A stretch of 64,000 nucleotides of DNA from a virus. The stretch lies in the IMG/VR virus record IMGVR_UViG_3300027833_000001, positions 64,001-128,000 of that record. One strand, written 5' to 3'. A model generated the notes under the pieces. The model searched no databases. It was not told the origin of the DNA and saw nothing but the letters and a program-made list of their open reading frames with translations. Position numbers and translations under genes: made by a program. This document shows positions 1-64,000 of the stretch, piece by piece (position 1 is the first letter of the stretch; every line of letters begins with the position of its first letter).

Positions 1-1386
1 AGATTCGGTGAAAGTGAAGAAGGTAAGTATCTTGTTAATGGTAGCACATTTGATATGCAATTTGAACACCACCCACAGGCATTGACTAGTTGTAGTGTTT
101 ATCCTAGTATGGTCCACGCCGGAGTTGATGTCACTGCCCAAAATACGATGGATCGTAAGGCGGTCAACATCTATCCAGTAGACTTATGGGTACATATGAA
201 CTTTGATACAGTCATTGATAAGATATCAGAAGAAGCAAAGACACTGATAAGAAAAGGAGACTTAATACTGTATCTAACTCTTTCTGGTGAGGCTTTTGGA
301 TGTGATGAGCAAAATTGGATAGCAGATTTAACAGATGGCATTGTAAGGAACAACCTGACTGATGCTAAGATTGCAATACAATGTGCCGATATGAATTTTG
401 AAGCTAACTATGATGCTTGGTTAAAAAACAACCAAGTAAGTTATACATTCCGTAATGTGTTCTCAATAGACTTTTTTCAGTGGACGTACTCAAAGCAATT
501 TCAGATGCGAACTGGTAAATGGAGTTGGGAGAACAATGCTCCCAAAAGATATAATGGTATACAAGTCATGTTTCCAAATGAAGTATTACATGGCACTACT
601 CCTGGCACTGAGAAAACTGGTGACTTACTATGCTTAAATGGAATGTCTAGACCACATAGAATCGCAACTGTCGCTGAGTTACATAGACTTGGTTGTTCGA
701 ATGACTTTGTAAGTTTATTGTGGCGGTACCAAGATATAAATAATCTAACAGGACTAGATAATGTAAAGAGTCATATCATGGATAACCTATTAGCGTCGGC
801 TGAACAGAAAGAATATTTTAATGAATATTTCGATATAAGTCCCAACAATATTCAACCACATCCAGGAATTATTGATATTGACCTACAAGAAAATATTTTC
901 TTGAATGATGATAGAAGAATTGAATTATCACACTACACAAAAACTTTTTTCAGTCTAGTTACCGAAACTGTTTTTGATTCAGGTAAGTCTGCGGTCAACA
1001 AAAATGGGTTTACGAGTATTGATCAGTTTGATAACGGTATATGTTTTATTACAGAAAAGACATATAAACCTATAGCGTATTTTCATCCATTCATTCTTAT
1101 GGGTTCTTTTAAGTCACTTGAATACTTACGAAAATCAGGATACGAAACTTTTCCAGAAATGTTTGATGAGAGTTATGACACTATGGAAGATTCTAAAGAC
1201 AGATTTAATGCTGTTATAGAACAAGTACGATTATGGAAAGAAAAAACACAAGAAGAAAAAATCACAATTTATGATTCTATTGTACCAAAGTTGGTACACA
1301 ATCATAATACTTTAATAAAGAAGTCTGCCCTACTTGATGCGGTAGCGTTTGAAGACTATAGTAAAATAGGGAGTGCATTGTTATGA
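1..1386 (+). CDS. Putative glycosyltransferase-like protein ('TEKT' family of marine phages), 5'-truncated by the window edge
   Basis: The frame is open from base 1 and in frame with the ATG at 55. C-terminal FSLVTET..FITEKTYKPI..HPFI..G..LEYLR..GYETF..FDESYD block is shared with 4758..5957 and 17803..18870. Sits next to UDP-glucose dehydrogenase. Confidence 0.55.
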   Translation, partial: RFGESEEGKYLVNGSTFDMQFEHHPQALTSCSVYPSMVHAGVDVTAQNTMDRKAVNIYPVDLWVHMNFDTVIDKISEEAKTLIRKGDLILYLTLSGEAFGCDEQNWIADLTDGIVRNNLTDAKIAIQCADMNFEANYDAWLKNNQVSYTFRNVFSIDFFQWTYSKQFQMRTGKWSWENNAPKRYNGIQVMFPNEVLHGTTPGTEKTGDLLCLNGMSRPHRIATVAELHRLGCSNDFVSLLWRYQDINNLTGLDNVKSHIMDNLLASAEQKEYFNEYFDISPNNIQPHPGIIDIDLQENIFLNDDRRIELSHYTKTFFSLVTETVFDSGKSAVNKNGFTSIDQFDNGICFITEKTYKPIAYFHPFILMGSFKSLEYLRKSGYETFPEMFDESYDTMEDSKDRFNAVIEQVRLWKEKTQEEKITIYDSIVPKLVHNHNTLIKKSALLDAVAFEDYSKIGSALL

Positions 1387-2537
1387 AAATAGGCTTTATT
1401 GGATTCGGTAAATTGGGTCAACCATGTGGAGAAGTAATTAAACTTAAAGGGCATGATGTAAAGGCATATGATGTAGCTAAAATTGATACATTCGTGCCAA
1501 TGTGTGACACTATAGAAGAAACTGTCAAAGATAGGCATATTGTGTTTGTTGCAGTTCCCACACCACATGATCCAGCGTATGAAGGAAGTTCGCCAACACA
1601 TCACTTACCTCCAAAAGACTTTTCTTATGATATCGTGAAAGATGTTATTATAGAAGCTAATAAACACATGAATCCAGACCAAATGTTGGTGGTTATAAGC
1701 ACTGTGTTACCGGGCACTGTACGTAGAGAGTTCGTACCATTAGTTACTAACACTAGATTTGTATATAACCCATACTTGATTGCTATGGGTACAGTCGCTT
1801 GGGATATGGTAAACCCAGAGATGGTAATGATTGGCACAGAAGATGGTGACACATCTAAAGAAGCTGGAGAACTAATTTACTTTTATGCAAGTATCATGGA
1901 GAATGATCCTCGTTATGTTGTAGGCACATGGGATGAATGTGAGTGTATCAAAGTTTTCTACAATACATTTATTAGTGCCAAGATAGGTCTTGTGAACATG
2001 ATACAAGATGTTGCAGAAAAACAGGGTAATATCAATGTTGATGTTGTTGCAGATGCATTGAGAGATAGCACTCAAAGAATTATGGGTCCTTCTTATATGA
2101 AACCTGGCATGGGTGACGGCGGTGCTTGTCACCCCAGAGACAATATTGCTTTACGTTATATGGCTGAAGAATTAAATCTTGGTTATGATATGTTTGCTGA
2201 AATTATGAAAGCTAGAGACATACAAGCAGAGAATATGGCAAAAGCCATACTGGATAAAGGAGAAGTTGTATACTTCACTTCAGACAGCTACAAACCAAAA
2301 GTCAAATATACAAATGGTAGTTATAGTTTACTTGTACAAGATTACGTAAAATCTTTGGGAGGGGAAGTGGCAACTGATCCATCTTGTGCAGAAGTTATTG
2401 TTATTGTACACCAAGGAGATACAGTGGGAGATGACGTACAAGTACCTAAAGAGGTTATCTACTTTGATCCTTGGAGAACATACAAGAGCGATACTAATTA
2501 TGTTATCCATTACGGCAATACAAGGAGAATTAAATGA
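1383..2537 (+). CDS. ugd: UDP-glucose/GDP-mannose 6-dehydrogenase
   Basis: N-terminal IGFIGFGKLG Rossmann motif, FVAVPTP, ISTVLPGT, KVFYNTF and catalytic GGACHPRD. Confidence 0.9.
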   Translation: MKIGFIGFGKLGQPCGEVIKLKGHDVKAYDVAKIDTFVPMCDTIEETVKDRHIVFVAVPTPHDPAYEGSSPTHHLPPKDFSYDIVKDVIIEANKHMNPDQMLVVISTVLPGTVRREFVPLVTNTRFVYNPYLIAMGTVAWDMVNPEMVMIGTEDGDTSKEAGELIYFYASIMENDPRYVVGTWDECECIKVFYNTFISAKIGLVNMIQDVAEKQGNINVDVVADALRDSTQRIMGPSYMKPGMGDGGACHPRDNIALRYMAEELNLGYDMFAEIMKARDIQAENMAKAILDKGEVVYFTSDSYKPKVKYTNGSYSLLVQDYVKSLGGEVATDPSCAEVIVIVHQGDTVGDDVQVPKEVIYFDPWRTYKSDTNYVIHYGNTRRIK

Positions 2538-2647
2538 AACAACTATGGGACAAAATACGCGCACCATATCTCAGATGGAAACTAAAACGAGAGTATAGGA
2601 AACGCATCAAAGAATTACAAGATAGAGATCCTTTTATATATGATTGA
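2534..2647 (+). CDS. Small basic protein (37 aa, MKQLWDKIRAPYLRWKLKREYRKRIKELQDRDPFIYD)
   Basis: Fills the ugd-carbamoyltransferase gap, overlapping both neighbours (ATGA at 2534); GGAG upstream. Below the ORF-track length cutoff. Confidence 0.65.
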   Translation: MKQLWDKIRAPYLRWKLKREYRKRIKELQDRDPFIYD

Positions 2648-4079
2648 ATGGGGAGTTAGTGCTGGCACACATGATGCCTCTTTGACTGTGATGTACGACA
2701 ATGGTTGGTCTACACCAGAAATTATTTTTGCATCGCATTCTGAAAGATATAGCAGATTTAAAAATGACAAGCACTTAAATGAAAGTTTAATACGTGAGGC
2801 TCTCAAGTATGGGCGACCCGATGTGGTTTACTGGTATGAGAATCCTCTACTTAAAGCAACTCGTAAGTTATATGCTAGACAGAGTAAACCTTGGCTTAGT
2901 CCTAAGAAGTATCTTAGAGAATGGGGTATCGATGCACCAGTAAAATGGGGTAATCACCATGAGAGTCATATGGCAGCCGGGTACTATACACGACCAAAAA
3001 ATTGGAGTACTGATTGTGCTACTCTTGTTATTGATGCTATAGGAGAATGGACAACTACTAGCATTTGGTACAATGATGAGCAATTGTGGACTCAGAATTA
3101 TCCTAAATCATTCGGATTGTTTTATTCTGCATTTACAGATAGAATTGGATTGAAAGCAAATGAAGATGAATATATTCTTATGGGTATGGCAGCCTACGGT
3201 GACCCTTCTAGATTTCATAGAGAGGTATTGGATCTTTGGCATTCCGGTGTTAATCTCCATAGAGGTATTTCTTGGTGGATGCCTGAACTTACTGAAGACG
3301 ATTATTTCGATGTAGCCGCGGCTGTTCAAACAGTATATGAGTATCAGTTTAGAATGTTACTTCAGAAAGCCCATACAATAACAAATACAAATAATCTAGT
3401 TTTTATGGGTGGGTGTGCATTGAATTGTCTTGCAAATCGATTGATACCAGATTACTTCAAGAATCATTGGATAATGCCTAATCCAGGAGATGCTGGTTCT
3501 TCATTGGGCGCTATATTAGCACACAAGAAATGTCATATTGATTTTAATGTTTATTTGGGTGAATCCATATATGGTAAATATCCAGTTAAGGCTTTGTTAG
3601 AGGAATTGAAAACTACTGGTATTGTAGGTGTTGCAAACGGTCAAGCAGAGTTTGGACCTAGAGCATTGGGTAATAGAAGTTTATTAGCTGATCCTAGAGG
3701 TAAGAAGATGCAAGACAAAGTAAACGCAATCAAACAACGACAAGAGTTTAGACCATTCGCTCCAGTTATTCTACAGAGAAACGCATATAAGTATTTTGAT
3801 GTGAATAAAAACTTTTCATCTCCGTATATGCAACAAGTAGTCAGATGTTTAGAGCCTAAAAAGTATCCTGCAATAGTACATAAAGATGGTACTAGCAGAG
3901 TTCAGACAGTAACTAGTCAAGATCATAAAGGGTTATACAAGCTACTGACACGATGGGAAGCAGAAACAGGATGTCCTATGTTGTTAAACACTAGTCTTAA
4001 TATCAAAGGTGAGCCAATAGTAAACTCCAGACAAGATGCTGAAGACTTTGAAATGGAATATGGTGTAAAGGTCTTTTAA
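2640..4079 (+). CDS. Carbamoyltransferase (NodU/CmcH/TobZ family)
   Basis: HDAS, ERYSRFKND, HHESH, DAIGE, EYILMGMAAYG, GGCALNC, PGDAGSSLGA, EFGPRALGNRSLLADPR, FRPFAP, LLNTSLN. Confidence 0.93.
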   Translation: MIEWGVSAGTHDASLTVMYDNGWSTPEIIFASHSERYSRFKNDKHLNESLIREALKYGRPDVVYWYENPLLKATRKLYARQSKPWLSPKKYLREWGIDAPVKWGNHHESHMAAGYYTRPKNWSTDCATLVIDAIGEWTTTSIWYNDEQLWTQNYPKSFGLFYSAFTDRIGLKANEDEYILMGMAAYGDPSRFHREVLDLWHSGVNLHRGISWWMPELTEDDYFDVAAAVQTVYEYQFRMLLQKAHTITNTNNLVFMGGCALNCLANRLIPDYFKNHWIMPNPGDAGSSLGAILAHKKCHIDFNVYLGESIYGKYPVKALLEELKTTGIVGVANGQAEFGPRALGNRSLLADPRGKKMQDKVNAIKQRQEFRPFAPVILQRNAYKYFDVNKNFSSPYMQQVVRCLEPKKYPAIVHKDGTSRVQTVTSQDHKGLYKLLTRWEAETGCPMLLNTSLNIKGEPIVNSRQDAEDFEMEYGVKVF

Positions 4080-4777
4080 TGCGTATCGTAGTTGGTGGTG
4101 ATAGTTGGACTAAAGGATGGGGCTTGGATTTTGCGATGGGTCAAGCACCATGGCCATGTTACTTAGACGGTAATAATGAAGTTAATAATGTCTCGCAAAG
4201 TGGTGATAGCAACTCAATAATCTGCCAAGAAATAAAATCAGCATATCATAAAAATAAACCCGATCTAATCATTGTCGGATGGACAAGTATGCTGAGATGT
4301 CACACAACAAGAGGCACTAAAGGTTGCCCCGCTGAGTCGTCCTATGTAGAGTGGTTAGCGAACAAATATGAAGCATCAACTATTGATGACTTTAGAAGTC
4401 AATGGTTTGATTATGTAAATCAGATTGAATCATTACCCTGCAATGTAATACACTTTACTGTATTTGGAGATGAATTACCACCTGTTAAGAACAAGATAGA
4501 TAAATCATATCTGGAGTATCTTGCCAACGACTCGGGCTATAACTTTCTATATCGTATCCCAACATTTGAGTTTGGACTATTACAGAAAGAAAGCGCCAAA
4601 AGCATGAAAATGTTATTTCAAAATTCTGGTGTTGAAGACTATGAATTGGCGTGTTTTGAAAGAGATAAAGTCCAGCTAGATTTTCAAAGCTCCAATTTTC
4701 AGATATGTGGTCATCCTACACATATAGGACACATGAAATGGGGAGAGGAAGTAAACCGTGCCATTCGATCATTATAA
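4079..4777 (+). CDS. SGNH/GDSL-hydrolase-like protein
   Basis: N-terminal GDSWTKG, N.S.SG.SN block and C-terminal GHP...GH..W. Confidence 0.6.
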   Translation: MRIVVGGDSWTKGWGLDFAMGQAPWPCYLDGNNEVNNVSQSGDSNSIICQEIKSAYHKNKPDLIIVGWTSMLRCHTTRGTKGCPAESSYVEWLANKYEASTIDDFRSQWFDYVNQIESLPCNVIHFTVFGDELPPVKNKIDKSYLEYLANDSGYNFLYRIPTFEFGLLQKESAKSMKMLFQNSGVEDYELACFERDKVQLDFQSSNFQICGHPTHIGHMKWGEEVNRAIRSL

Positions 4778-5957: not shown

Positions 5958-6797
5958 ATGGCTGAAATACTCCACATGAAAACCAGAAAGGTTGATATAG
6001 AACAGATTCATGTATATGGATGTTCGATGCCAGCTGGTGATGAATTGACTGTTCCAAGAGATAAAGACTATGTTCCTTTGGCAGGAAAAGAACTATTGGC
6101 GTGCGAAAAATCTGACAAACGGCAAGCATTCCCAAAGACTGTTGGTGATCATTTTGATATACCAGTTATCAATAATGCATTTTGGGGTGCATCAAATGAG
6201 CAGAGTGCATACATCTTACTTGAAGATATAATGAAACAAAGAATAGAGCGCAACCATGCAGTGTTCTTTTGTGTTACAATGATAACCCGTATTATGCACT
6301 TTGATAAAGATGATGGACACCCAATGTCTTTACAATTGGGTAAACCAGATGTGCTGAATAAAATTGCAGATGATGAGACTATAGTTAATCATTATAACGA
6401 CTTTAAGATGTTGTACCAATACTACACAACGATGCATCAAGTTATGTTGTTATGTAAATCTATAGGTGCTCCATTGTTCTTCATACCGATGTATGAACAT
6501 CCTACATGGAACTTAATGAGAGACTATATTCCATATGATCGTAAACTTAAAAAGAAACCGGATATAGTCAGGAATGAATGGAAATTTAGAAAAATTATTG
6601 ATAATATAGCAAGAGAAATGAATGGAGTATCTCTTTGTATAAATCCTATACGTATTGCAACATTCAACTGGTATACCAACAGTTTAGAGGAAAAGGGTAA
6701 AAAATATTATAGTGCAGGAGGTCATCCTAATAAATATGCACATGACCAGTATGCACAGAGATTAATTGAATTGCTAACACCCGAAAAAGCTAAATAG
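5958..6797 (+). CDS. SGNH-hydrolase-like protein
   Basis: YGCSMPAGDEL, NNAFWGASN and C-terminal GGHPN..AH. Confidence 0.55.
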   Translation: MAEILHMKTRKVDIEQIHVYGCSMPAGDELTVPRDKDYVPLAGKELLACEKSDKRQAFPKTVGDHFDIPVINNAFWGASNEQSAYILLEDIMKQRIERNHAVFFCVTMITRIMHFDKDDGHPMSLQLGKPDVLNKIADDETIVNHYNDFKMLYQYYTTMHQVMLLCKSIGAPLFFIPMYEHPTWNLMRDYIPYDRKLKKKPDIVRNEWKFRKIIDNIAREMNGVSLCINPIRIATFNWYTNSLEEKGKKYYSAGGHPNKYAHDQYAQRLIELLTPEKAK

Positions 6798-10701: not shown

Positions 10702-10702
10702 A

Positions 10703-12497: not shown

Positions 12498-13997
12498 ATG
12501 CACGGAATAATATTTGGTGGCTTGTTAGAAGATTTGGGAATGGACTCCAGTATGGTAGCTATTCGTAGATCATCTGGTGCACATAAGATTGCTACCTTTT
12601 TACGAAATCATAATTATGATATTGAGGTTGTTGATTATATTCATCGATGGTCTTTAGATCAATTAAAAGAATTTACAATAAAGAAAGTTGATACAGAAAC
12701 TCTTTTCTTTGGCTTTAGTTCTACGTTTATGATTAGCACACCAGAGTTGATTGAGTTTGTTCATTGGCTCAAACATAGATACCCCAATATCAAACAAGTT
12801 ATCGGTAGTCAAAATCAAACAATGAAAGAACTACCATGTGACTGGTATATTTACGGGTATGGTGAGTACGCTATACTAGCACTCTTAGACCACTTTAAGG
12901 GAGGACCAGAGCCGATACACGAAGGAAATCTTATAAATGCATATACTAACTACAAGGCATTTCCTAAAGAAGACCTTTCTGTTCAATATACAGAGAGAGA
13001 TTTTATCCACGACAGGGAAATACTACTGTTAGAGATGGCAAGAGGATGTAAGTTCAAATGCTCTTTCTGTAGTTTTCCTATTCTTGGTGTGAAAGATGAT
13101 CATACAACCTCAGAACAATATTTCTACGATGAGATGTCGAGAAACTATGACAAATGGGGTACGACTCATTACATGGTTCTAGATGAAACATTCAATGATT
13201 CTAGTGAAAAGATTGCGAAGTATGCGGCTGCCTGTAGAAAACTTCCATTCCAACCTAAGATGACTGCTTATATTAGAGCAGACTTAATGGTATCTAGAAT
13301 ACAAGATTGGGACAACTTGATAGATATGGGAATCACTTCTCACTTTTATGGTGTTGAGTCTATGCATTTACCTTCAGCTAAATCAATTGGCAAAGGAATG
13401 AACAGTGGGCGAATACAAGATGGCTTGCTTCATGTAGATGAGTACTTCAGAAAGAATGCTGGCTTTTATAAAGGACATATATCTTTGATTGCTGGTTTAC
13501 CACATGAGACATTAGAAACTCTCAGAGAAACAAAAGACTGGTTAGAAAAGTATTGGATAGAAAATAGTTATCATATGAATCTATTGATGATTAAAGATTT
13601 AGATAAAAATGGCGCGTCACTGAATCATAACTCTGCTATGGATAAAGATTGGAAAAAATTTGGATACGAGAAAACTACTTTTCCAGAAGAGTGTGATATT
13701 GATTGGAGTAAAAGTTATAATCCATATTTCAAAAATCTCTATGAGTACGTGGATAAGTATGAATACTATTTGAAATGGAAAAATGAAAATTTAAGTCTTT
13801 ACGAGGTTACTAAATTTGCAGTTGAAGAATGGAGTCAAGCTAAACTTAAAAATGGTATTGATCCGTTTATGTATGATAAGTTCTTTATTGATCCCACAGT
13901 TAAGTGGAGTGACTTTGCTGAATTAAATCATTTAGAAAGAAGAACAGACCACATCAATGCTCATATAGATGACTATATAAGTAAGAAATTATCCTAG
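12498..13997 (+). CDS. B12-binding-domain radical SAM protein
   Basis: ARGCKFKCSFC (CxxxCxxC), DETFND, YIRADL, GVES, IAGLPHET; N-terminal GAHKIA..LR...Y.IEVVD cobalamin-binding-like region. Confidence 0.85.
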   Translation: MHGIIFGGLLEDLGMDSSMVAIRRSSGAHKIATFLRNHNYDIEVVDYIHRWSLDQLKEFTIKKVDTETLFFGFSSTFMISTPELIEFVHWLKHRYPNIKQVIGSQNQTMKELPCDWYIYGYGEYAILALLDHFKGGPEPIHEGNLINAYTNYKAFPKEDLSVQYTERDFIHDREILLLEMARGCKFKCSFCSFPILGVKDDHTTSEQYFYDEMSRNYDKWGTTHYMVLDETFNDSSEKIAKYAAACRKLPFQPKMTAYIRADLMVSRIQDWDNLIDMGITSHFYGVESMHLPSAKSIGKGMNSGRIQDGLLHVDEYFRKNAGFYKGHISLIAGLPHETLETLRETKDWLEKYWIENSYHMNLLMIKDLDKNGASLNHNSAMDKDWKKFGYEKTTFPEECDIDWSKSYNPYFKNLYEYVDKYEYYLKWKNENLSLYEVTKFAVEEWSQAKLKNGIDPFMYDKFFIDPTVKWSDFAELNHLERRTDHINAHIDDYISKKLS

Positions 13998-15709
13998 ACA
14001 GTACTAACAAATCTAGCAGAACCAGGCGCACCAGGTAATGATTGATCTCCACTAATTACCGAAACAGACACATCGCTTGCTTGAACATTAACGGGTGCTG
14101 GATCAGCAGGAGGTACAATAATAGTTGCAGGTTCGTTTCGTGCTTCATTGGCTGCCTCTGTCTCGCGTGATACTTCTTGAGAATCAATGTTTGGTGTACC
14201 AGTAGATGGTGTTAGTTTAGCACGTTTTTCAAGTTCTGTATTGATAAGATTTTGATTTTCCTCACTGATATCATCATCTTTAATAATAGCATTAAGTTGA
14301 CCTGTGGTAGCAGTAGCTATTTTAGAAGCATCGACTTCACTCTTACCAATTAAGTCCTCATCATATAGTCCACTATCTTTGGCTGAAGATAGGTTATCCG
14401 ATTGTGTTTTTCTTGCTGTAATTTCTTTTTCTATAAAGGCTTCTACTTGATCAGATGCTTCAGTAATTAGAGCCGGGAATCTTTCTTTGACTTTAGGATC
14501 TTCTTCTGGATATACTTCATGCAGATTGAAATATGCTTCTCTTGCAATTTCGTAACCAGCAACACCTAAAGTACCCACAGTACCTACACCAGGAACAAGT
14601 GCAGTTGCGGCTAGTCCTGCTCCTACCATGTCACCTTTAACTAGCTTATGAATCCCTATACCTGCCGCTACCGCTGATCCAACAAAGGGTATTGTTCTTC
14701 CTAATAGTCCTGGACCTTTTGAAGCAATTGCTTTAGTAACAGCCGCGGCTATTTTTCCACTCTTGGTCACACCAGTGACGTTTGCTAAATCAGCAGATAA
14801 AGCCGCGCCCTTAGCCGCTATAATTTTGAGGTTTCCTAATTTTGAAGGGTCGGTAACTCCTTCTTTTAAAAGTTTTCCTCCAAACCCTGCCGTTTTCTGA
14901 GCCTTAGTTAACCTTTCAGCATTACGACCCAACTCTACCACCTTCCCTGATTTCTCAACGACAGTATTTGCTACACCACCAACGGCTCTTAGTACACTAG
15001 GAGCGGCAGCCGCAGTTGCTCTGACAGCAGTTGGACTTATCGCTTTTGCTAACTTTGTAGAGTCTAGTGCTGAACCTGCATCAAGTGGACCAGTTCTATT
15101 AGGGTCTGACTGTAAATCAAGAATCGGCTTTGTTGGTGGAACACCTGGTACAACTTCCCCGTTGTTCTCTTTACCTTTAGCCATCTGGTTCATTAACAGC
15201 GAGAATCCTGCCAGTCCAAGTCCCGCTTTACCCAGGGTACCACCTAATCCTTTAACATTAGGCATTGAGAAACCAGATTTAATCTGTTCCTCTGATTTTT
15301 CGTTTGTCTCAAATACTTCTTTTTCTTCTGTATTTTTATTTATTTCTTTAAGTTCGCTTTTGATATCGATTAAAACATTTTCAATTTCTTGAAGATTTTC
15401 TGTAGCAGAACCTAAGGCGTTTGCATTTACCGTAGTACTTCTACCATTGTTATTAGCAGTTGGTGCAGACACTTGTGCATTTAGTCCACCTATATTTTTT
15501 CCTGGATTAGTACTAGCTAGATTAGCCCTAGCCATAGAATTAAAAGGAATTACATTGTCACTATTACCACGTCCTCCAGAAAGCATTCGGGCACCCATGC
15601 CAACTCCTGCACCCACTCCCACAGTTTTTGCTGTTCCTTTAAGAATTGGCAATGCTCTTGAAGCCATGGGTGAAACGATTCTACCGGCTCCTGCTAAAAA
15701 TGGTAACAT
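13994..15709 (-). CDS. Tape-measure / baseplate hub candidate (gp29-like)
   Basis: 571 aa, Ala/Gly-rich helical, with hydrophobic IPFVGSAVAAG...VPGVGTVG segment; directly downstream of gp26/gp51. Confidence 0.55.
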   Translation of the reverse strand: MLPFLAGAGRIVSPMASRALPILKGTAKTVGVGAGVGMGARMLSGGRGNSDNVIPFNSMARANLASTNPGKNIGGLNAQVSAPTANNNGRSTTVNANALGSATENLQEIENVLIDIKSELKEINKNTEEKEVFETNEKSEEQIKSGFSMPNVKGLGGTLGKAGLGLAGFSLLMNQMAKGKENNGEVVPGVPPTKPILDLQSDPNRTGPLDAGSALDSTKLAKAISPTAVRATAAAAPSVLRAVGGVANTVVEKSGKVVELGRNAERLTKAQKTAGFGGKLLKEGVTDPSKLGNLKIIAAKGAALSADLANVTGVTKSGKIAAAVTKAIASKGPGLLGRTIPFVGSAVAAGIGIHKLVKGDMVGAGLAATALVPGVGTVGTLGVAGYEIAREAYFNLHEVYPEEDPKVKERFPALITEASDQVEAFIEKEITARKTQSDNLSSAKDSGLYDEDLIGKSEVDASKIATATTGQLNAIIKDDDISEENQNLINTELEKRAKLTPSTGTPNIDSQEVSRETEAANEARNEPATIIVPPADPAPVNVQASDVSVSVISGDQSLPGAPGSARFVSTV

Positions 15710-16590: not shown

Positions 16591-16608
16591 TATAACTCCT
16601 AATAATTA

Positions 16609-17806: not shown

Positions 17807-18870
17807 CTTATTCTGAAAAAATGTATAATACTGATATCTGGCATGATAAGTTCAAAGATATTCCAAATACGTGCGTACTAGGTTGTGAGAAAATTTTCGA
17901 ACGGGATTTGAGTGATCATGTTAGAAAAGCTATTGAGGTGTTACCCTTAACAGAAAACATAATCGTCACTTTTTTATACGAAGCATTACATTCTATACAT
18001 TGGAATGTTGTGTTTAATCTTTTGCTTGATGTGGGATACAAACGTATTTTGCTTATAGATGGAGGAGAATTGCCTCCTATTTTACTGGGAAAGCCAAGAC
18101 ACGAAAATATTCATCATTTTCCAGATAGAACATTACAAACTAGTCCTTATAGAAACAAGTTGGAACTATCTAATAGATACGGGAATAAACAATTAGTACC
18201 TGAACGAGAAAGAACAAAAGTTTTTATTAGTTTAGCAAGAATGGTTAGGGAAGAAAGAATATACTTCACAAATAAGATATTAAACGATACAGAATTATAC
18301 AATAAGGGTATAGTATCATGTGGGTGGGGAGACACAGAGCCCATGAAACTCCAGTGTATATCATTATCAGATGAAGAGATGAGTAGATTTCCTGTAACGC
18401 TTGGACATCAAAATGCCGATCAGCACGGTTACTTTGAGGAGTTCTCTACTGCTATGTTCAATGTAGTACTGGAATCTTCTATCGGTATGAATACATCACG
18501 ATACTATGATGGAGTATTTACAGATACAGATAGACTCTTTATAACAGAGAAAACAACTAAGGCATTCTATATGCACCAAATACCCATTATATTAGGAGCT
18601 CCAGGAATAGTACAACACCTAAGAAGCATGGGATATGATATGTTTGATGAGATTGTTAACCATGATTACGATAACGAAGATAATATTTTCAAACGATGTG
18701 ATATGATATTTGCCGAATTGAAACGACTATCTTCAATACCACTAAACCAATTAAACAATATGTTGACGATACAATCAACTTTACCCGATAGATTTCATCA
18801 CAATCGATCTTTATTGCACCAGTATGCTGAAGATAAAGTAATTTTAGATTGGATCGATAATAACTTTTAA
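17803..18870 (+). CDS. Putative glycosyltransferase-like protein ('TEKT' family) inserted between gp4 and gp2
   Basis: FNVVLES..FITEKTTKAF..QIPI..G..LRSMGYDMFDEIVNHDYD. Confidence 0.55.
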   Translation: MTYSEKMYNTDIWHDKFKDIPNTCVLGCEKIFERDLSDHVRKAIEVLPLTENIIVTFLYEALHSIHWNVVFNLLLDVGYKRILLIDGGELPPILLGKPRHENIHHFPDRTLQTSPYRNKLELSNRYGNKQLVPERERTKVFISLARMVREERIYFTNKILNDTELYNKGIVSCGWGDTEPMKLQCISLSDEEMSRFPVTLGHQNADQHGYFEEFSTAMFNVVLESSIGMNTSRYYDGVFTDTDRLFITEKTTKAFYMHQIPIILGAPGIVQHLRSMGYDMFDEIVNHDYDNEDNIFKRCDMIFAELKRLSSIPLNQLNNMLTIQSTLPDRFHHNRSLLHQYAEDKVILDWIDNNF

Positions 18871-19461: not shown

Positions 19462-20705
19462 TGACAACTGTATCAGATAAAATGGCTTCAAAAGGAACTG
19501 GGAAGTTAGTACTTTCATATCCGCATGAAGTAGATAATCCACAAAACACAGAAGACCCAATGTATGTACATTCGGTTATATTCCAAATTCTTGTTAGAGA
19601 GAAATCTCCTAGCCGGTCTGGTAGTACAGCGGGTGGACAGGCAATAGAAGTTTCAAACGGATCAGACAATCTTCCAATAGAATCAAATATGATTCAAAAC
19701 CAAGCCATTGTAGTCGCAGGGGCAGCGGCTATTGCGGCAGCAGGATCTAATCCCGGAACAACCGTGGCTGTTGGCGCAGGTGCCGCAATAGCCGGCATGG
19801 TTGACAAATTATTTGGTAGTGGTGATGGAGTTCAAGCCGTTATCGACACTACGGAAAGTAAAGTTCAAGAGTTATCAAAAAAAGTTAGTGATTATGCAGG
19901 CTCGATTAATCCAATAATAAGAACTGAAAAAATAATCAAGTTATATACTCCACAATCACCACAAGAAGAATATGGTGCTGGTTGGACAGATGTTGAGTTT
20001 GGATTAGCAGGTGCTTTAGCGAAACAAGGAAATGTATTAGACACGCTTAAAGGTATGGCAAACGGTAGTAACCCAGAAGCTAGAGAACGTGGAATCAGAT
20101 TACTTACTGGTATGAGTAATATCACACAAGCCGCAGGATTTGATTTTAAATTACAAGATGCAATAGAACTGCAAACAGGCAAGATACCAAATCCATATAA
20201 ACAGCAATTGTTTAAAGGAATGAACTTTAGATCATTTGCATACACATTCAAATTTATACCTAAAAATCAAGCAGAACTTGCATCGACATATGAAATAATC
20301 AAGACATTTAGAGATCATATGCATCCAGAAAGAACTGATGATTTCTTTATTATGTATCCTTCTACTTTTGAAATTGAGTATCAGTATAGAGGCATCAGAA
20401 ATAAGTGGCTAACTAAGATAGCTGATTGTGCATTAGTAAATATGAAAGTTGATTACGGAGCGGGTGGTGCTTTAACTACTTTCCAAAACACTGGTGGTGC
20501 ACCAACAGAGATAAACATAGAAATGCAATTCAGAGAACTTGCACTTATTACAAGAGAACATTTTAATGATTGGGATCCATTGCCCGATAATATATCTCCT
20601 ACTCCAACAGAGCCAGTTGATCAGGGTGATAACCAAACAGCAGAAGATGCTAAAGAAGATCAACAAAAACAAGATGAAGGGAATATTAAGGGAGTCACAA
20701 CATAA
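19461..20705 (+). CDS. gp48: Baseplate tail-tube cap gp48
   Basis: NPYKQQLFKGMNFRSF.Y.FKF.PKN..E, YPSTFEIEY, CAL.N..VDY, FRELALITR. Confidence 0.85.
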   Translation: MTTVSDKMASKGTGKLVLSYPHEVDNPQNTEDPMYVHSVIFQILVREKSPSRSGSTAGGQAIEVSNGSDNLPIESNMIQNQAIVVAGAAAIAAAGSNPGTTVAVGAGAAIAGMVDKLFGSGDGVQAVIDTTESKVQELSKKVSDYAGSINPIIRTEKIIKLYTPQSPQEEYGAGWTDVEFGLAGALAKQGNVLDTLKGMANGSNPEARERGIRLLTGMSNITQAAGFDFKLQDAIELQTGKIPNPYKQQLFKGMNFRSFAYTFKFIPKNQAELASTYEIIKTFRDHMHPERTDDFFIMYPSTFEIEYQYRGIRNKWLTKIADCALVNMKVDYGAGGALTTFQNTGGAPTEINIEMQFRELALITREHFNDWDPLPDNISPTPTEPVDQGDNQTAEDAKEDQQKQDEGNIKGVTT

Positions 20706-21211: not shown

Positions 21212-21215
21212 TTAA

Positions 21216-24369: not shown

Positions 24370-24380
24370 GGAATAAAGAA

Positions 24381-25025: not shown

Positions 25026-25033
25026 CAAGGAGT

Positions 25034-25041
25034 TATAAATA
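25034..25041 (+). promoter_or_regulatory. T4 late promoter
   Basis: TATAAATA, 5 nt before the gp25 ATG. Confidence 0.8.
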
Positions 25042-25046
25042 GAACT

Positions 25047-25753: not shown

Positions 25754-25781
25754 ATAAAGATAACGAGAGAAGAGAAAAAAC

Positions 25782-51844: not shown

Positions 51845-52864
51845 ATGCCAACAAAATTACAACTAAGACGAGGTAGTACATCAGACCATTCCAGTTTTAC
51901 TGGCGCCGTCGGTGAAGTTACCATCGATACAGACAAGGATACTCTGGTAGTTCATGACGGATCAACCGCTGGTGGATTTGTAGTACCTAGACTATCTGAT
52001 ATTAGCGTAACCGATTCGGGTGGTGACGGCTCGCTTTCATATAACAATTCAACCGGTGTACTTACTTATACTGGTCCAAGCGCATCTGAAGTTAGAGCGC
52101 ACATTACTGCTGGTGCTGGTATTTCAGTTTCAAGTGGTGTTGTTACATTAGACATACTTGACGAAGATAACTTTTCAACAGATAGTGCCACAAAAGCTCC
52201 TTCACAGCAATCTACAAAAGCATATATTGCTAGCCAGATTGCAACCAAAGACAATACAGATGAGATGACAGAAGGGTCAACCAATCTCTACTTTACGAAT
52301 TCTAGAGCAGACGCAAGAATATCAAATGCTCTTAAAGATGAAGATAACATGGCATCTGATAGTGCTACACATCTTCCTTCTCAACAAAGCGTTAAAGCAT
52401 ACGTTGATGCACAGACAACAGACGAAACTGCGGAAGGTTCATCTAATTTATATTTTACCACTGCCCGAGTTGATTCACAAATAGATTCATATCTCAATGC
52501 AGGAACTGGAATAACACTTGCTGGTAGTGGCGCAGTCGCAGTTAATACCTCTGTCATACCAACAATAACTGCAATGAATTCAGCAATTGCAACAAGCATA
52601 TCTAACCTAGTCGATTCATCACCAGATGCATTGAATACGTTAAATGAGTTAGCCGCAGCCTTAGGCGATGATGCTAACTTCAGTACGACAGTAACAAACA
52701 GTATAGCAACAAAAGCTCCACTTGCTAGTGCGGCTCTTACGGGTACACCAACAGCACCCACAGCAAGTACGGGTACAAACACTACTCAACTAGCTACTAC
52801 TGCTTACGTAAAACAAGAAATAGATGCACTCAAGGCACTCTTGTATGCATATGATCAATCATAA
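51845..52864 (+). CDS. Fibre protein with an Mtd_N-like N-terminal domain
   Basis: LQLRRGSTSDHSSFTGAVGEVTIDTDKDTLVVHDGSTAGG; PDALNTLNELAAALGDDANF; LTGTPTAPT..TNTTQLATTAYV. Confidence 0.78.
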   Translation: MPTKLQLRRGSTSDHSSFTGAVGEVTIDTDKDTLVVHDGSTAGGFVVPRLSDISVTDSGGDGSLSYNNSTGVLTYTGPSASEVRAHITAGAGISVSSGVVTLDILDEDNFSTDSATKAPSQQSTKAYIASQIATKDNTDEMTEGSTNLYFTNSRADARISNALKDEDNMASDSATHLPSQQSVKAYVDAQTTDETAEGSSNLYFTTARVDSQIDSYLNAGTGITLAGSGAVAVNTSVIPTITAMNSAIATSISNLVDSSPDALNTLNELAAALGDDANFSTTVTNSIATKAPLASAALTGTPTAPTASTGTNTTQLATTAYVKQEIDALKALLYAYDQS

Positions 52865-56033: not shown

Positions 56034-57654
56034 AACTTCATATCATGGTAATCCAAACCTAAAACCAGTAGGATATCAACACGATTTTACTCCTGAACAA
56101 ATTGAAGAGTATTTGAAGTGTAAAGATGATGTAATTTACTTTATCGAAAACTACTGCAAAATTGTCACACTAGATTCTGGATTGCAACCCTTCAAACTTT
56201 ACGAATGTCAAAAGCGAAAAGTAGAGTTTATCATGGAAGAGCGTAAAGCTATTCTTATGGAAGGCAGACAGCAAGGTAAAACAATTACAGCCGCAGCCTG
56301 CATACTACATTATAGTATATTTAATGATAGTAAAACAGTTGCTATTATGGCAAACAAGACTTCGGCTGCCCGAGAAGTTCTATCCCGTTATCAAATCATG
56401 TACGAACATCTACCTATATGGATGCAACAAGGTGTTAAGACTTGGAACAAAGGTAACGTAGACTTAGAGAATGGATCAGTAATATTCACAGCCGCAACAA
56501 CAGCCTCTGGTATTCGTGGTAAATCTGTAAACTGGTTGTACATCGATGAGGCTGCCATCATACCAAACAACGTAGCAGATGAATTTTTCACTTCAGTTTA
56601 TCCTACCATTTCTGCTGGTGAGACTACAAAGATTCTACTTACTTCTACACCACTTGGATACAATCACTTCTGGAAATTTTGGAATGAGTCTAAGAAAGGA
56701 TTAAATGGATTCAAGAGTATGTTTGTACCATACTCAGAGATTCCAGGAAGAGATGAGAAATGGGCAGAAGAACAATTTAAACTATTGGGTGAATTAAAGT
56801 TTAACCAAGAAGTTTTATGTGATTTTCTAGGGTCATCTAACACATTGATTAGTGGTAAAGCATTAGGAATGATGTCATCATATGACCCAGAATATACAAA
56901 AGATGGATTAGACATATATGAAGAACCTCAAAAGGATAAATACTATGTTGTAATAGTGGACACTTCTAGAGGCATAGGAGGTGACTATAGTGCATTTACA
57001 ATGATGGATATAACTGAAATGCCATTTAAAGTAGTGGGTAAGTATCGAAACAATCAGATATCACCACTATTATATCCCAATATAATTGGTAAAGTAGCAT
57101 CGGACTTCAATGATGCATACGTCTTAATAGAAACAAATGACATTGGACAACAAGTATCAGATATACTTCACCAAGAATTAGAATATGAAAATATATTTAG
57201 CACAGTTTCAGAGAATAACAAACAATATGTTTCTCCTGGATTCGGAAAGAAAAGCGCATTAGGAGTACGAACAACCAAATCAGTTAAACGACAAGGTTGT
57301 TTTGCACTTAAAGCATTAATAGAAGAACAAAAACTATTGATTTTCGATGCCGACTGTATTAGTGAATTATCTACATTCGTAGAGAAAGGCGGTACCTTTG
57401 TTGCAGATGAAGGATACCATGATGATTTAGCCATGACCTTAGTGTTATTTGCGTGGCTTAGTACGAATACATTCTTTAAAGACTTGACCAACGTTGATAT
57501 GAGACAGAATTTATACAATTCAGAGATGAGAACAATAGAAAGAGACTTAACACCATTCGGTGTTATAGACGATGGTCAACGAGAAGAAGTATTTGTAGCA
57601 AGTGGTGATGTATGGATGTGGGCAGACGAGAAAGAGAAATACGAATTATTATAA
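56020..57654 (+). CDS. gp17: Terminase large subunit gp17
   Basis: Y.GNPNLK, RQQGKT (Walker A), YIDEAA (Walker B), STPLG.NHF, D.SRG.GGDYS, HDDL.M.LV.F.W. Confidence 0.97.
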   Translation: MALIETSYHGNPNLKPVGYQHDFTPEQIEEYLKCKDDVIYFIENYCKIVTLDSGLQPFKLYECQKRKVEFIMEERKAILMEGRQQGKTITAAACILHYSIFNDSKTVAIMANKTSAAREVLSRYQIMYEHLPIWMQQGVKTWNKGNVDLENGSVIFTAATTASGIRGKSVNWLYIDEAAIIPNNVADEFFTSVYPTISAGETTKILLTSTPLGYNHFWKFWNESKKGLNGFKSMFVPYSEIPGRDEKWAEEQFKLLGELKFNQEVLCDFLGSSNTLISGKALGMMSSYDPEYTKDGLDIYEEPQKDKYYVVIVDTSRGIGGDYSAFTMMDITEMPFKVVGKYRNNQISPLLYPNIIGKVASDFNDAYVLIETNDIGQQVSDILHQELEYENIFSTVSENNKQYVSPGFGKKSALGVRTTKSVKRQGCFALKALIEEQKLLIFDADCISELSTFVEKGGTFVADEGYHDDLAMTLVLFAWLSTNTFFKDLTNVDMRQNLYNSEMRTIERDLTPFGVIDDGQREEVFVASGDVWMWADEKEKYELL

Positions 57655-57718: not shown

Positions 57719-59638
57719 ATGGCTTTTCAGCTATCACCAGGAGTTCAGGTCAGAGAACAAGACTTGACTAATGTTGTTCCCGCAGTTGCAACCACAATTG
57801 GTGCGATTGTAGGAGACTTTAGTTGGGGTCCTGCCCATCAAATACAAAACGTAGACTCGGAAAACAATTTAGCAGAAATGTTTGGGAAACCAACAACAAG
57901 TAATTTCATAGACTTTATGACTGCTTCATCATTTTTAGCATATGGGTCTAACTGCTTAACAGTCAGAGAAGTTGGTACTGCCGCAAGAAATGCGACTGCC
58001 GATGCATCTGGTTTACTAATAAAAAACAGAGAGATTTTTAACGAATCTTATGGTAATGGAGAAGCTAGTGTAGGAGTTTGGGCAGCCAAATATCCTGGAA
58101 CATTAGGCAACTCTTTAAAAGTCTCAATGGCAGACTTAACTTCTACCACAAACACTTCAGTTGCATCTATTGCAGTGACAGCAGGAGGTTCTGGTTATAC
58201 TTCAGCACCAACAGTCACAGTAGCTAATCCAGATACTGGTACTACAGTTGCAACAGCAACAGCAACAGTATCGGGTGGAGCAATCACTGCTATCAGTGTA
58301 CCGTTTGGTGGAGTTGGATACACTTCAGTACCTACAATCACTATTTCAGGTGGGGGCGGTTCTGGTGGAACAGCAACAGCAACTCTATCTACTGCTTGGA
58401 CTTACGCAAATCAATTTGATAACGTACCAACCACTACTTCTTGGGGTACTAGATCAGGTACTACAGTAGATGAATTGCACGTTATCGTAGTTGACGAAGA
58501 CGGATCAATTACAGGTGTAGCTGGAACAGTCTTAGAAAAGTTTGCAGGATTATCTAAAGCATCCGATGCTAAAGATGATGTCAATCAGTCCAACTACTGG
58601 AAAAAAGTTATCAATGACAGATCCAAATGGATATGGGTCATGGATAATCCAACAGAAGGAACAGATTGGGGTACTTCAGCCGCAGGTAATGTCGGATTCG
58701 ATACACTAACAGCAGGTGTTGCAGATCAAGAAGTTTCACTATCTGGTGGAGTATTAGCCGCACCAGCAACCGCAGACTTACAATCTGGTTACTTAATGTT
58801 TGACAATGACGAATTAATTGACGTATCGTTAATTATGACTTCGGGTCATGCTCTTGCAGTTTCAGACTATGCAATCGATAACATTGCAGAGATCAGAAAA
58901 GACTGTATGGTATTTGTATCTCCAGAAAGAGATTCAGTTGTTAATAATTCTGGATCAGAAGTAACTGCAATCGTTGCTGATAGAAGTGCATTAACACGCA
59001 GTTCATTCGCTGTCATGGACAGTGGGTGGAAGTATATGTATGACAAGTACAACGACCAGTATGTTTACGTACCACTTAATGGTGACGTAGCTGGTGCTTG
59101 TGTTACTTCAGATAACGCAAATGATCCTTGGTTCTCACCTGCAGGTTATGCCCGCGGAGTAATTAAGAACGCTGTTAAACTTGCATTCTCTCCTAAGAAA
59201 GTTGATAGAGATGAGTTATACAGACAAGGTATTAACCCAGTAGTTGGATTCCCTGGAAACGGTATTGTACTCTTCGGAGACAAAACTTTGCTAGACAAAC
59301 CTTCTGCATTTAATAGAATCAATGTACGTAGACTGTTTATTGTATTAGAAAAAGCAGTTGCTACAGCCGCTAAGTTCCAACTCTTTGACTTCAACGATGC
59401 TTTCACAAGAGCGCAGTTCAGATCATTAGTTGAGCCTTTCTTACGTGACGTACAAGGCAGAAGAGGGATCTATGACTTCAGAGTAGTTTGTGACGAAACA
59501 AACAACACTACTGAAACAATAGATGCAAACGAATTCAGAGCAGATATTTTCGTTAAGCCAGCAAAATCAATCAACTTCATTACGTTGACATTTGTTGCTA
59601 CACGAACTGGTATCTCTTTTGAAGAACTTGGTGCCTAA
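57719..59638 (+). CDS. gp18: Tail sheath protein gp18
   Basis: SPGVQVRE.DLT, WFSPAG..RG, RDELY..GINP, GDKT, AFNRINVRRLF, KPAKSINFITL.FVATRTG. Confidence 0.97.
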   Translation: MAFQLSPGVQVREQDLTNVVPAVATTIGAIVGDFSWGPAHQIQNVDSENNLAEMFGKPTTSNFIDFMTASSFLAYGSNCLTVREVGTAARNATADASGLLIKNREIFNESYGNGEASVGVWAAKYPGTLGNSLKVSMADLTSTTNTSVASIAVTAGGSGYTSAPTVTVANPDTGTTVATATATVSGGAITAISVPFGGVGYTSVPTITISGGGGSGGTATATLSTAWTYANQFDNVPTTTSWGTRSGTTVDELHVIVVDEDGSITGVAGTVLEKFAGLSKASDAKDDVNQSNYWKKVINDRSKWIWVMDNPTEGTDWGTSAAGNVGFDTLTAGVADQEVSLSGGVLAAPATADLQSGYLMFDNDELIDVSLIMTSGHALAVSDYAIDNIAEIRKDCMVFVSPERDSVVNNSGSEVTAIVADRSALTRSSFAVMDSGWKYMYDKYNDQYVYVPLNGDVAGACVTSDNANDPWFSPAGYARGVIKNAVKLAFSPKKVDRDELYRQGINPVVGFPGNGIVLFGDKTLLDKPSAFNRINVRRLFIVLEKAVATAAKFQLFDFNDAFTRAQFRSLVEPFLRDVQGRRGIYDFRVVCDETNNTTETIDANEFRADIFVKPAKSINFITLTFVATRTGISFEELGA

Positions 59639-60194: not shown

Positions 60195-60218
60195 AGTTGG
60201 ACATAGGATTATTATAAT

Positions 60219-62399: not shown

Positions 62400-62408
62400 G
62401 AGAATTAA

Positions 62409-62795
62409 ATGGCGGTCACAGTAGACGTTTTAAAATTAACTCAAGTTCAAGGCGTAGTAGCCGTTAGTGGAACTGGCGCGGCAGGTACCATCGCTCTTGC
62501 AACTACTCTAAAGAAATCAACCGAAACACAATCGACACCAATAGCTAATATTAGATCCATTAAGTGGACATTAGCTGCCGCTGGTGTTGCGACTGTTACG
62601 AGAAACAGTAAAGTTCTTTATGATCTAGATAAGTCTGGTGAGATTGAGTTTAACGGCTTCTCTGATATTAGAGAAAATGGCTCTGATATAGTAGTGACAC
62701 TATCAGGTGGATCAGGTACAGTAATCGTTGAAACAACAAAAGTAAGTGGTTATGGATCACAACAGCATCAAGGTGCAGATGGGAGTCTAGGTTAA
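62409..62795 (+). CDS. Hypothetical head-associated protein
   Basis: AGGAG RBS; between the gp67-like and gp21 genes. Confidence 0.65.
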   Translation: MAVTVDVLKLTQVQGVVAVSGTGAAGTIALATTLKKSTETQSTPIANIRSIKWTLAAAGVATVTRNSKVLYDLDKSGEIEFNGFSDIRENGSDIVVTLSGGSGTVIVETTKVSGYGSQQHQGADGSLG

Positions 62796-63448: not shown

Positions 63449-63453
63449 CTTTT

Positions 63454-63461
63454 TATAAATA
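63454..63461 (+). promoter_or_regulatory. T4 late promoter for gp22
   Basis: TATAAATA. Confidence 0.85.
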
Positions 63462-63497
63462 TTATCAGAAACATAATCCTAAAAGGAGATCAGTAAC

Positions 63498-64000
63498 ATG
63501 AGTGTAGAAAATAAGATCAGAGAGTTTCTTGCGAAGGGTTCAGCCCTTAGTGAAGAACTCCAAGAACTGGATGAGAAGGCAGACAACCTTTCTCCCAATA
63601 GTAAACCAGGTGATTCATCTGCCCCTACTCAGGGTAGTTCAGATGCTAATCCTGAAAAAGACGATTTAAGTGGAACTAACAACAAGGAAGGTGGTTTAAC
63701 TGCTGAAGTTGGTAAAGCCGCATCTGCTAAAGCGAAGAAAGATGGAACATTACCTAAGGGTAATGGTGCTAAAGAAGCTCCTTCTAACTTTGAAAACGAA
63801 GAAAACACAGAAGCCTCTGTAAACAATAGTTCATCACAAGGCGTAGTCGCACAAGAAGAAGTAGCATCTGAAGAAGAAGTTATCTCTGAAGACGAAGGCA
63901 CTGAAGAAGAATTGGAAGTTGTTTCCGAGACTGAAGAAGTTGTAGCAGAAGACGACCAAGAAGTTGTGTCTGAAGATGAAAGTCTTTTCAGTCAAGACAT
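63498..64000 (+). CDS. gp22: Prohead scaffold gp22, 3'-truncated by the window edge
   Basis: AAGGAG RBS; open frame MSVENKIREFL... to the window end; very acidic with many [LIV]-x-E gp21-type sites; follows gp21. Confidence 0.8.
   Translation, partial: MSVENKIREFLAKGSALSEELQELDEKADNLSPNSKPGDSSAPTQGSSDANPEKDDLSGTNNKEGGLTAEVGKAASAKAKKDGTLPKGNGAKEAPSNFENEENTEASVNNSSSQGVVAQEEVASEEEVISEDEGTEEELEVVSETEEVVAEDDQEVVSEDESLFSQD

Follow-up and report, generated by a model that had tools for sequence, protein, structure and literature searches.

Flank-conditional purging of GCWGC and other restriction-type words in the genome of a marine T4-like phage

The DNA considered here, a 64,000-nucleotide window covering positions 64001–128000 of a complete 165,127-bp T4-like virus genome (IMG/VR record IMGVR_UViG_3300027833_000001), poses a question about one short word. 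Why does GCWGC persist in it only where a G precedes the word, a C follows it, or both? A sequence-only reading of the window had seen in this pattern the footprint of restriction avoidance together with a context-dependent escape, and had placed the protective context at GGC or GCC. The analysis reported here compares the counts with null models, extends them to the whole genome, to other words and to other phages, and weighs a mark carried by the phage DNA against other possible causes of the pattern.

Copies of each word were sorted by their flanks into fully flanked (5′ G and 3′ C), half-flanked (one of these) and unflanked. Triplets given below list unflanked/half-flanked/fully flanked copies, and x/y in class or flank-base counts stands for observed/expected. 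Expectations were derived from Markov models of orders 0–3 and from a codon null in which synonymous codons were shuffled within genes (200 shuffles). The window contains 24 GCWGC sites: 11 are GGCWGCC, 13 have one flank (5′ G or 3′ C) and none is H-GCWGC-D. The Markov models expect 32–46 unflanked and ~2 doubly flanked copies, and codon shuffling expects 69.1±5.3 unflanked, 21.1 half-flanked and 1.7 (maximum 6) fully flanked copies. Over the whole genome 31 of the 49 sites are full, 18 are half and none is unflanked, compared with 86–111 unflanked and 131–165 in total under the Markov models, and with 132.6±7.8 unflanked (minimum 113), 51.4±6.0 half, 6.3±2.6 full (maximum 15) and ~190 in total under codon shuffling. 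Unflanked sites are therefore absent, half-flanked ones survive at ~0.15–0.35 of the expected number, and those with both flanks reach or exceed it, GGCWGCC being 5–6-fold enriched over every null.

The sequence-only reading had seen a 5′ G and/or a 3′ C at every GCWGC it found (about twenty), which holds for all 24 window sites and for the 49 of the genome, and the sites it listed (2972, 3188, 13226, 19736, 24515 and an Ala run at 31461) lie exactly where it placed them. It had also suggested counting H-GCWGC-D against a Markov or codon null; at 0 versus 133±8 in the genome, the count is far from expectation. Chance or composition as the cause is ruled out by the Markov models of orders 0–3 and by codon shuffling. 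A one-sided flank rule of the type IIS (BbvI-like) kind is ruled out by the half-sites, which split 9:9 between the two orientations across the genome. As to the depletion of GCWGC itself, it is restriction avoidance of the classic kind.

At least 20 restriction-type words, GCWGC among them, have been purged from the phage, and the depleted words include RCATGY, AGATCT, AAGCTT, TCATGA, CTTAAG, TGCGCA, AACGTT, GGCC and GAGCT. Removal is largely by synonymous recoding, Ala-Ala being rewritten as GCS-GCN. Palindromes were picked solely by depletion of the unflanked class, and their flanked classes were examined afterwards. For G/C-ended palindromes the counts are 13/492 unflanked (GGCC contributing 11 of the 13), 69/208 with one end doubled and 49/22 with both; with GCWGC and GGCC set aside, they are 2/259, 44/110 and 18/12. 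A/T-ended palindromes (AGATCT, AAGCTT, ACATGT, TCATGA, AACGTT, TGCGCA, AGCGCT) are purged at any flank (3/178, 1/156, 0/34). The graded exemption thus extends to at least nine words besides GCWGC and is limited to words ending in G or C. Words spared by a doubled terminal G/C include CAGCTG, CTGCAG, CGWCG, GTCGAC, CTCGAG, GTTAAC, GTGCAC and GAGCTC, with spared forms such as GGAGCT, CCTGCAGG, CCAGCTGG, GGTCGACC and GGTTAACC. Sorted by 5′ flank, G-started words number 119/184 after G, 10/344 after A, 13/135 after C and 42/383 after T; C-started words number 48/74 after C and reach at most 0.14 of expectation after any other base. GAGCT is 8-fold depleted, and 27 of its 31 survivors are GGAGCT, found in three frames and in intergenic DNA (P ~1e-17). 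Survivors of purged non-palindromic words obey the same flank rule (e.g., TCGTCGg, TCGACGg, gGCGTGC). GGCWGCC, GGAGCT and the other spared words could all be removed silently.

What spares a site is a GG/CC step that straddles its boundary at either end, because any site with a flank-doubled terminal G/C is spared, and not only those overlapping GGC or GCC. The GGC/GCC context put forward earlier is a special case of this rule, and as the general protective context it fails on GGCC, which contains GGC on both strands and is purged. The suggestion that other palindromes be compared in the same way has a mixed outcome: G/C-ended words do share the flank exemption, which is not peculiar to GGC/GCC, and A/T-ended words are not spared. 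An artefact of motif selection was rejected, given that the same selection applied to A/T-ended words and to phages RB49, S-PM2 and the HTVC010P type yields no exemption.

Most GCWGC sites lie in Ala-Ala codon pairs (45 of 49 in the genome, in the frame xxG-GCW-GCC), including 28 of the 31 GGCWGCC, which show no positional or intergenic preference. As the sequence-only reading had noted, Ala-Ala is mostly written GCC-GCN or GCG-GCN (170 of 215 pairs). Where the preceding codon ends in A, C or T, the rare Ala codons GCC and GCG open 168 of 179 pairs, and in all 11 exceptions the second codon is GCC. After a G-ending codon, GCW-GCC is used in 27 of 36 pairs and the site-free GCG-GCD in only 2 (65 elsewhere). 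G-GCW-GCD occurs 7 times against ~29 expected. GCG-GCC does not occur at all and G-GCC essentially never; either would create GGCC. Relative to codon-usage priors, acceptance is below 0.006 for unflanked sites and ~0.15–0.25 for half-flanked sites, and for doubly flanked sites it equals or exceeds that of site-free recodings. It follows that GGCWGCC is not selected against, whereas G-GCW-GCD is, because 27 of the 36 G-preceded pairs use GCW-GCC despite the availability of site-free GCG-GCD. Three GGCWGCC in other reading frames (genome 8259, 8977 and 37210) persist, each removable by one silent change, while of the ~130 unflanked sites expected (codon shuffle, all frames) none survives.

GGCC is the most strongly avoided tetramer (18 in the genome versus 167 expected), and no flank spares it. 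All four window copies (at 20942, 40062 and 40914, and that in Table 1) read TGGCCN, as do 16 of the 18 in the genome. These survivors are most simply read as putative Trp-Pro pairs (TGG-CCN), which could not be recoded without GGCC.

The same counts in other phages show where the exemption occurs. The closest relative, G001 (~80% identity in gp6, 116 kb), follows the same rule (G 72/62, C 32/39). A more distant clade (L006-9) has GCWGC at 1/26/4 versus 35/15/1.6 expected, with nearly all survivors half or fully flanked; in its neighbors L010 and L011 GCWGC is not avoided and the flanks are ordinary. In Pelagibacter phage HTVC008M GCWGC is likewise not avoided, and the rule appears on other words: GATC is found at 0/55/28 versus 208/78/7 and GANTC at 0/33/10 versus 232/87/8, and GTATAC is also purged conditionally on its flank. 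L053, an 18.7-kb T4-like IMG/VR contig, has GCWGC at 0/3/0, GATC at 0/3/15 and GCGC at 0/4/8, lacks GAGCT, and contains 15 GGATCC (3.4 expected) and GGCC at twice the expected frequency; it is an extreme case of both flanks being required. In phage KVP40 the exemption is limited to G-started words with a 5′ G (88/199, versus 4/106 for C-started words). There GTCGAC stands at 0/15/3 and GCGCGC at 0/6/3, so that every one of the 18 SalI sites and 9 GCGCGC has a G flank on one side or both, and the C-started palindromes CTGCAG, CAGCTG, CTCGAG and CGATCG are absent altogether. The pattern is consistent with a single-base rule, G preceded by G, for the KVP40 transglycosylase DpdA2 and its associated genes; 13.7% of KVP40 G residues occur in that context.

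No exemption is seen for G/C-ended words in RB49 (1/326, 4/153, 0/18), in S-PM2 (0/222, 0/102, 0/12) or in a 678-kb pool of HTVC010P-type podoviruses, all of which purge CTGCAG, CAGCTG, CTCGAG, GTCGAC, GTGCAC, GTTAAC or GCGC. Since these phages purge overlapping words without exempting any, the exemption is tied to particular phage lineages and not to the method, to G/C-ended words or to T4-like phages generally. HTVC010P and HTVC008M were isolated on the same Pelagibacter strain, and only HTVC008M shows the rule. Their purged sets are nearly disjoint (HTVC008M: GATC, GANTC, TCGA, CGCG, RGCY; HTVC010P: CTNAG, GTSAC, ACGT, GGCC, GCGC), so a purge profile is not a simple mirror of the host strain.

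A mark on GG/CC steps, borne by the phage, is to our minds the best explanation of the conditional purge, and we put it forward tentatively. The phage would be under pressure from many type II-like nucleases, whose target words would have been recoded away. A site is tolerated if its outermost G:C pair adjoins an identical pair outside it, fully when this holds at both ends and partially when it holds at one. Virion DNA of the lineage would carry the mark on its GG/CC steps, either as a base modification specific to that context, on the guanines (or cytosines), or as a modified phosphate between them. Sites with marked boundaries would be poor nuclease substrates and selection would stop removing them; half-protected sites would evolve toward full protection, for example from G-GCW-GCD to G-GCW-GCC. 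That DNA modification is the cause, and what its chemistry and enzyme might be, we infer from sequence. Of what the sequence-only reading proposed, restriction avoidance with a context-dependent escape is strengthened by the 20 or more purged words, the graded exemption, its lineage specificity and the KVP40 footprint; the GGC/GCC context and the genes it named are not borne out.

Several observations weigh against such a mark. GGCC, which is made up wholly of GG/CC steps, is still purged without flank exemption, and GGWCC, CCGG and CCWGG, with internal GG/CC steps, are purged in relatives and never spared by a flank. A general GG/CC mark should protect words with internal steps unless their nucleases ignore it, and the GGCC purge argues against a simple, universally protective mark. 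Some G/C-ended words also fall outside the rule, namely CTTAAG, GACGTC and half-flanked GCATGC in the present genome and GAATTC, GTGCAC and CGCG in HTVC008M. Sparing sites both where the step opens the site (G-G...) and where it closes it (...G-G) requires a mark on each of the two bases or on the phosphate that joins them; we know of no system of that kind. A modification of T or A, which would fit the unspared GGCC, CCGG and CGCG, was rejected on the grounds that GGCGCC is spared in relatives and that there is no common T/A context. Finally, in the KVP40 relative nt-1 only ~0.1% of G is modified (PMC6884629), for which reason KVP40 is a suggestive positive control and not a proven one.

The search for modification enzymes adds to these points. 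In the complete genome there is no match to C5 (PF00145), N4/N6 (PF01555) or Dam-type (PF02086) methylase domains, and the only methyltransferase match is a weak Methyltransf_24 (E 4e-4) inside a biosynthetic operon. The TGT/DpdA model PF01702 finds nothing in the genome, and it also misses KVP40 DpdA2. DpdA2 (phrog_10773), which is detected in KVP40 at E 1e-242, is found neither here nor in G001 or HTVC008M, in a search that covered DpdA2 and not DpdA3/4-type proteins. Queries with KVP40 DpdA2, FolE, QueD and QueF (tblastn, phmmer) return no homolog in these three genomes, and Pfam scans of the present genome show no FolE, QueD or QueF either. Tet_JBP (PF12851) is absent from the genome, as is a ThyA-type hydroxymethylase (PF00303), ThyX being present instead. 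The earlier suggestion to look for dpdA, queC, folE or methylases elsewhere in the genome has thus turned up only a partial QueC-like match. This is in a 211-residue protein encoded between nrdA and nrdB (genome 20275-20907; L085:2275-2907) and covers residues 117–203 (E 9e-10), corresponding to the C-terminal third of QueC only. HTVC008M has a gene of similar size at the same place, annotated 'ferredoxin', with no tblastn similarity to the 211-residue protein. Radical SAM genes are numerous, and none is shown to be QueE.

Two TET-associated glycosyltransferases (PF20691) are encoded, at genome 43253-44194 (L086, E 3e-44) and 16450-17310 (E 1e-8), in a genome with neither TET nor C5-methylase. 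The second copy, in the L084 region (genome 15774-18190), overlaps the ThyX stop codon and is followed by a 291-residue protein without Pfam match. Neither copy has a tblastn match in HTVC008M, so PF20691 is not the shared factor. The genome also encodes SHMT, dCMP deaminase, sugar-nucleotide enzymes and a NodU/TobZ-type carbamoyltransferase. NodU/TobZ-family enzymes can carbamoylate 5-hydroxymethylcytosine (PMC8670742), but they do so only in company with a ThyA-type hydroxymethylase, and this genome has none. A large same-strand biosynthetic operon (window 1-6797 and genome 44.6-64 kb; L086, L087) contains six to seven radical SAM/SPASM enzymes, a fatty-acid desaturase, cupins, an Asp/Arg hydroxylase-like oxygenase, a methyltransferase, UDP-glucose dehydrogenase and an epimerase/dehydratase; it may conceivably act in the modification of DNA or of virion glycans. 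Twenty genes are shared with HTVC008M and absent from RB49 and S-PM2, a comparison of few genomes, and none of them evidently encodes an enzyme that modifies DNA. Among their products are UDP-glucose dehydrogenase, a carbamoyltransferase, a zeta/AAA_33 kinase-like 608-residue protein, a 195-residue protein matching an HTVC008M region annotated 'DNA binding protein' and small unknowns.

The features located in the window are collected in Table 1. Among the remaining window copies of the spared words, 9 of the 11 other GAGCT/AGCTC are GGAGCT/AGCTCC, the three other CTGCAG (9396, 39311, 54203) have one doubled end each, as do the other CGWCG (793, 34194, 54078), and further CAGCTG occur with both ends doubled at 30095 and with one at 7325, 21804 and 35663, unflanked copies numbering 0.

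Table 1. Sites and features located in the window (window coordinates)
Position	Feature	Doubled flanks	Remark
2640-4079	NodU/TobZ carbamoyltransferase		in biosynthetic operon
2972..2978	GGCAGCC	both	Met-Ala-Ala
3188..3194	GGCAGCC	both	
4151..4156	TGGCCA		one of 4 window GGCC
6030..6037	CCAGCTGG		CAGCTG with flanks
12576	GGTGCACA		second window GTGCAC
13226..13232	GGCTGCC	both	
14150..14156	GGCTGCC	both	in minus-strand gene
15005..15011	GGCAGCC	both	
18595..18602	GGAGCTCC	both	only GAGCTC in window
19721..19727	GGCAGCG	5′ G only	
19736..19742	GGCAGCA	5′ G only	
20496..20503	GGTGCACC		GTGCAC with flanks
21623..21629	GGCAGCC	both	
24515..24521	GGCTGCA	5′ G only	
29302..29308	GGCTGCC	both	
31460..31472	AGCAGCC + CGCTGCC	3′ C only, each	Ala run GCA GCC GCT GCC GCT
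34759..34765	TGCAGCC	3′ C only	
34966..34972	GGCAGCC	both	
35029..35035	CGCTGCC	3′ C only	
36542..36549	CCTCGAGG		only CTCGAG in window
37231..37237	GGCAGCG	5′ G only	
39682..39688	AGCTGCC	3′ C only	overlaps surviving GGAGCTG at 39680
40174..40180	AGCAGCC	3′ C only	
51906..51912	CCGTCGG		CGWCG copy
52654..52660	CGCAGCC	3′ C only	
56292..56298	CGCAGCC	3′ C only	
56364..56370	GGCTGCC	both	
56550..56556	GGCTGCC	both	
58081..58087	GGCAGCC	both	
59138..59145	CCTGCAGG		CTGCAG with flanks
62573..62579	AGCTGCC	3′ C only	

The record has direct terminal repeats and a GC content of 38%. Among the encoded proteins are those of a T4-type baseplate, tail sheath, gp23 capsid, gp32, gp59, UvsX/Y/W and a family B polymerase, and the gene order parallels that of HTVC008M. 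Megablast against known GenBank phages gives no match, and there is no close relative among them. Near-identical DNA (64–100% of words sampled from window 20000-29000) is contained in 12 sequencing runs from 7 studies (2017–2025); one of these is an 'air metagenome', and most are from marine or seawater sources. This uncultured marine phage has a wide distribution and a stable sequence. A cyanobacterial host, suspected at first from the list of avoided sites, was dropped, psbA being absent and giving no sign of such a host. Runs of five G (AGGGGG, GGGGGA) are ~7-fold depleted genome-wide relative to a first-order Markov expectation.

Among the alternatives to a phage-borne mark, the one that survives best, unlikely as we consider it, places the cause on the host side. 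The nucleases or defenses would themselves discriminate against doubled terminal G/C (being effectively HGCWGCD or HGAGCT enzymes), or a methylase common in the host group would mark GG/CC-overlapping sites at each passage; the phage would then require no modification system. This agrees with the failure to find a modification gene in the phage. The exemption is, moreover, motif-dependent, some G/C-ended words not being exempt, as with enzyme-specific flank tolerance, and the negative-control phages have other hosts or mostly other words, HTVC010P purging neither GATC nor GANTC. On the other side, at least nine unrelated words in one genome would need enzymes with an identical odd flank rule. 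Sau3AI and DpnII cut GGATCC and PstI cuts CCTGCAGG, so that characterized enzymes do cut doubled-flank sites. RB49 and S-PM2 purge CTGCAG, CAGCTG, CTCGAG, GTCGAC and GTGCAC and exempt none of them, and the host strain shared by HTVC008M and HTVC010P goes with the rule in HTVC008M only.

We regard it as distinctly improbable that nucleases encoded by the phage itself, directed against host or rival DNA, have the purged words as their targets, with the flank rule reflecting how those nucleases read DNA. The different word sets of HTVC008M and HTVC010P on one host strain imply that the purge tracks the phage rather than that host, and several nucleases are encoded in the genome (SNase, PD-(D/E)XK, NUMOD3). 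Some 20 palindromes would, however, need many nucleases, Pfam scans reveal no restriction-endonuclease-like family, and a flank rule common to different words is left without an account.

Codon conflict alone, in which GCWGC is kept where its removal would make GGCC and xxG-GCW-GCC is a mutational trap, has very little probability in our estimate. The frame of the 45 Ala-Ala sites is precisely that of the trap, and the lack of GCG-GCC, the near lack of G-GCC and the depletion of GGCC are as the trap requires. The trap also predicts GCG-GCD after G, where it is nearly missing and GCW-GCC is used instead. It gives no account of the three out-of-frame GGCWGCC, of GGAGCT in all frames and intergenic DNA, or of the other eight words, and in L053 the flank pattern is present while GGCC is not avoided. 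As sole cause it is ruled out by the Ala-Ala table and by the counts of GAGCT and other words. The conflict between GGCC and GCWGC is real, but it accounts for codon choices only and not for the exemption. Hardest of all to credit is a functional phage signal (binding, nicking or recombination) positively selected amid GCWGC avoidance, for the enrichment of GGCWGCC that suggests it follows from conversion of half-flanked Ala-Ala sites, half-flanked sites persist too, many unrelated words behave likewise, as do other cores (GGATCC, GGCGCC) in relatives, and the sites lack positional preference and keep to the Ala-Ala frame.

Should a modification have left this footprint, the existence of a context-specific DNA modification and its target could be read from phage genomes alone, on the scale of metagenomes and for uncultured viruses. 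Ocean phages of a very abundant group would then carry a modification whose enzymes are yet to be named; HTVC008M infects SAR11. It would be predicted that all 28 GGATCC of HTVC008M resist BamHI and Sau3AI, and that all 18 G-flanked SalI sites of KVP40 resist cutting. A wider proposal, which we think doubtful, is that abundant marine T4-like phages including HTVC008M carry a novel GG/CC-step modification unrelated to methylases, DpdA or TET, placed perhaps on both guanines or on the intervening phosphate, and that the same read-out gives G preceded by G as the context of KVP40 DpdA2. Were the host-side explanation correct, a flank dependence so far unrecognized would be common to many marine restriction enzymes.

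Avoidance of short palindromic restriction sites is classical in lytic double-stranded DNA phages, and has reportedly been surveyed by Rusinov et al. in 2018. The present genome resembles such cases in that many 4–6-bp type II palindromes are gone, mostly by silent recoding (GCW-GCN to GCS-GCN), and in that the word sets differ between relatives. It departs from them in that the purge depends on one outside base and copies with doubled ends are spared or enriched. Full-text searching of the literature yielded no description of a flank-conditional purge or of DNA modification in HTVC008M-type phages. Unlike phages with pre-replicative replacement of the T4 hydroxymethylcytosine type, this one has no ThyA-like enzyme, and global base replacement is unlikely because massive site avoidance would then be unnecessary.

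In other phages a C5-methylase, a TET-like dioxygenase and a glycosyltransferase hypermodify cytosine in the GpC context (PMC8256090; bioRxiv 10.1101/2023.12.21.572611). The proposed partial mark in a short context, two PF20691 glycosyltransferases and sugar-nucleotide enzymes are points of likeness here; the C5-methylase and Tet_JBP were not found, and a GpC mark would protect all GCWGC, GGCC and AGCT at any flank, the opposite of the observed pattern. Chlorella viruses have frequent-cutter methylases such as M.CviPII (CCD), and a CC-context mark of that kind would overlap site boundaries. The present case differs in that the three main methylase Pfam families are absent, the GCWGCCC survivors are not CCD, and GGCC, which such a mark would protect, is purged.

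The closest parallel lies with the DpdA family, which reportedly produces context-specific 7-deazaguanine in CAjan and 9g (the CAjan context being GGC). Phage iggy has a 7-deazaguanine modification with a GA motif (PMC10484667). KVP40 encodes FolE, QueD, QueC and QueF together with the divergent transglycosylase DpdA2 (PMC8056088); the DpdA2 cluster is core to its genus, Schizotequatrovirus, in one member of which mass spectrometry found 15% of deoxyguanosine converted to dPreQ1 (PMC12028318). In such systems neighbor-dependent replacement of part of the G protects from restriction, and KVP40, which has one, carries a footprint of the kind seen here. The differences are that this phage, G001 and HTVC008M lack DpdA, DpdA2 and FolE/QueD/QueF, and that sparing extends here to C-started words flanked by C, for which a single rule of G after G is insufficient. 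By analogy, DpdA2 of KVP40 makes it plausible, without proving it, that a flank-conditional purge is the report of a DNA modification.

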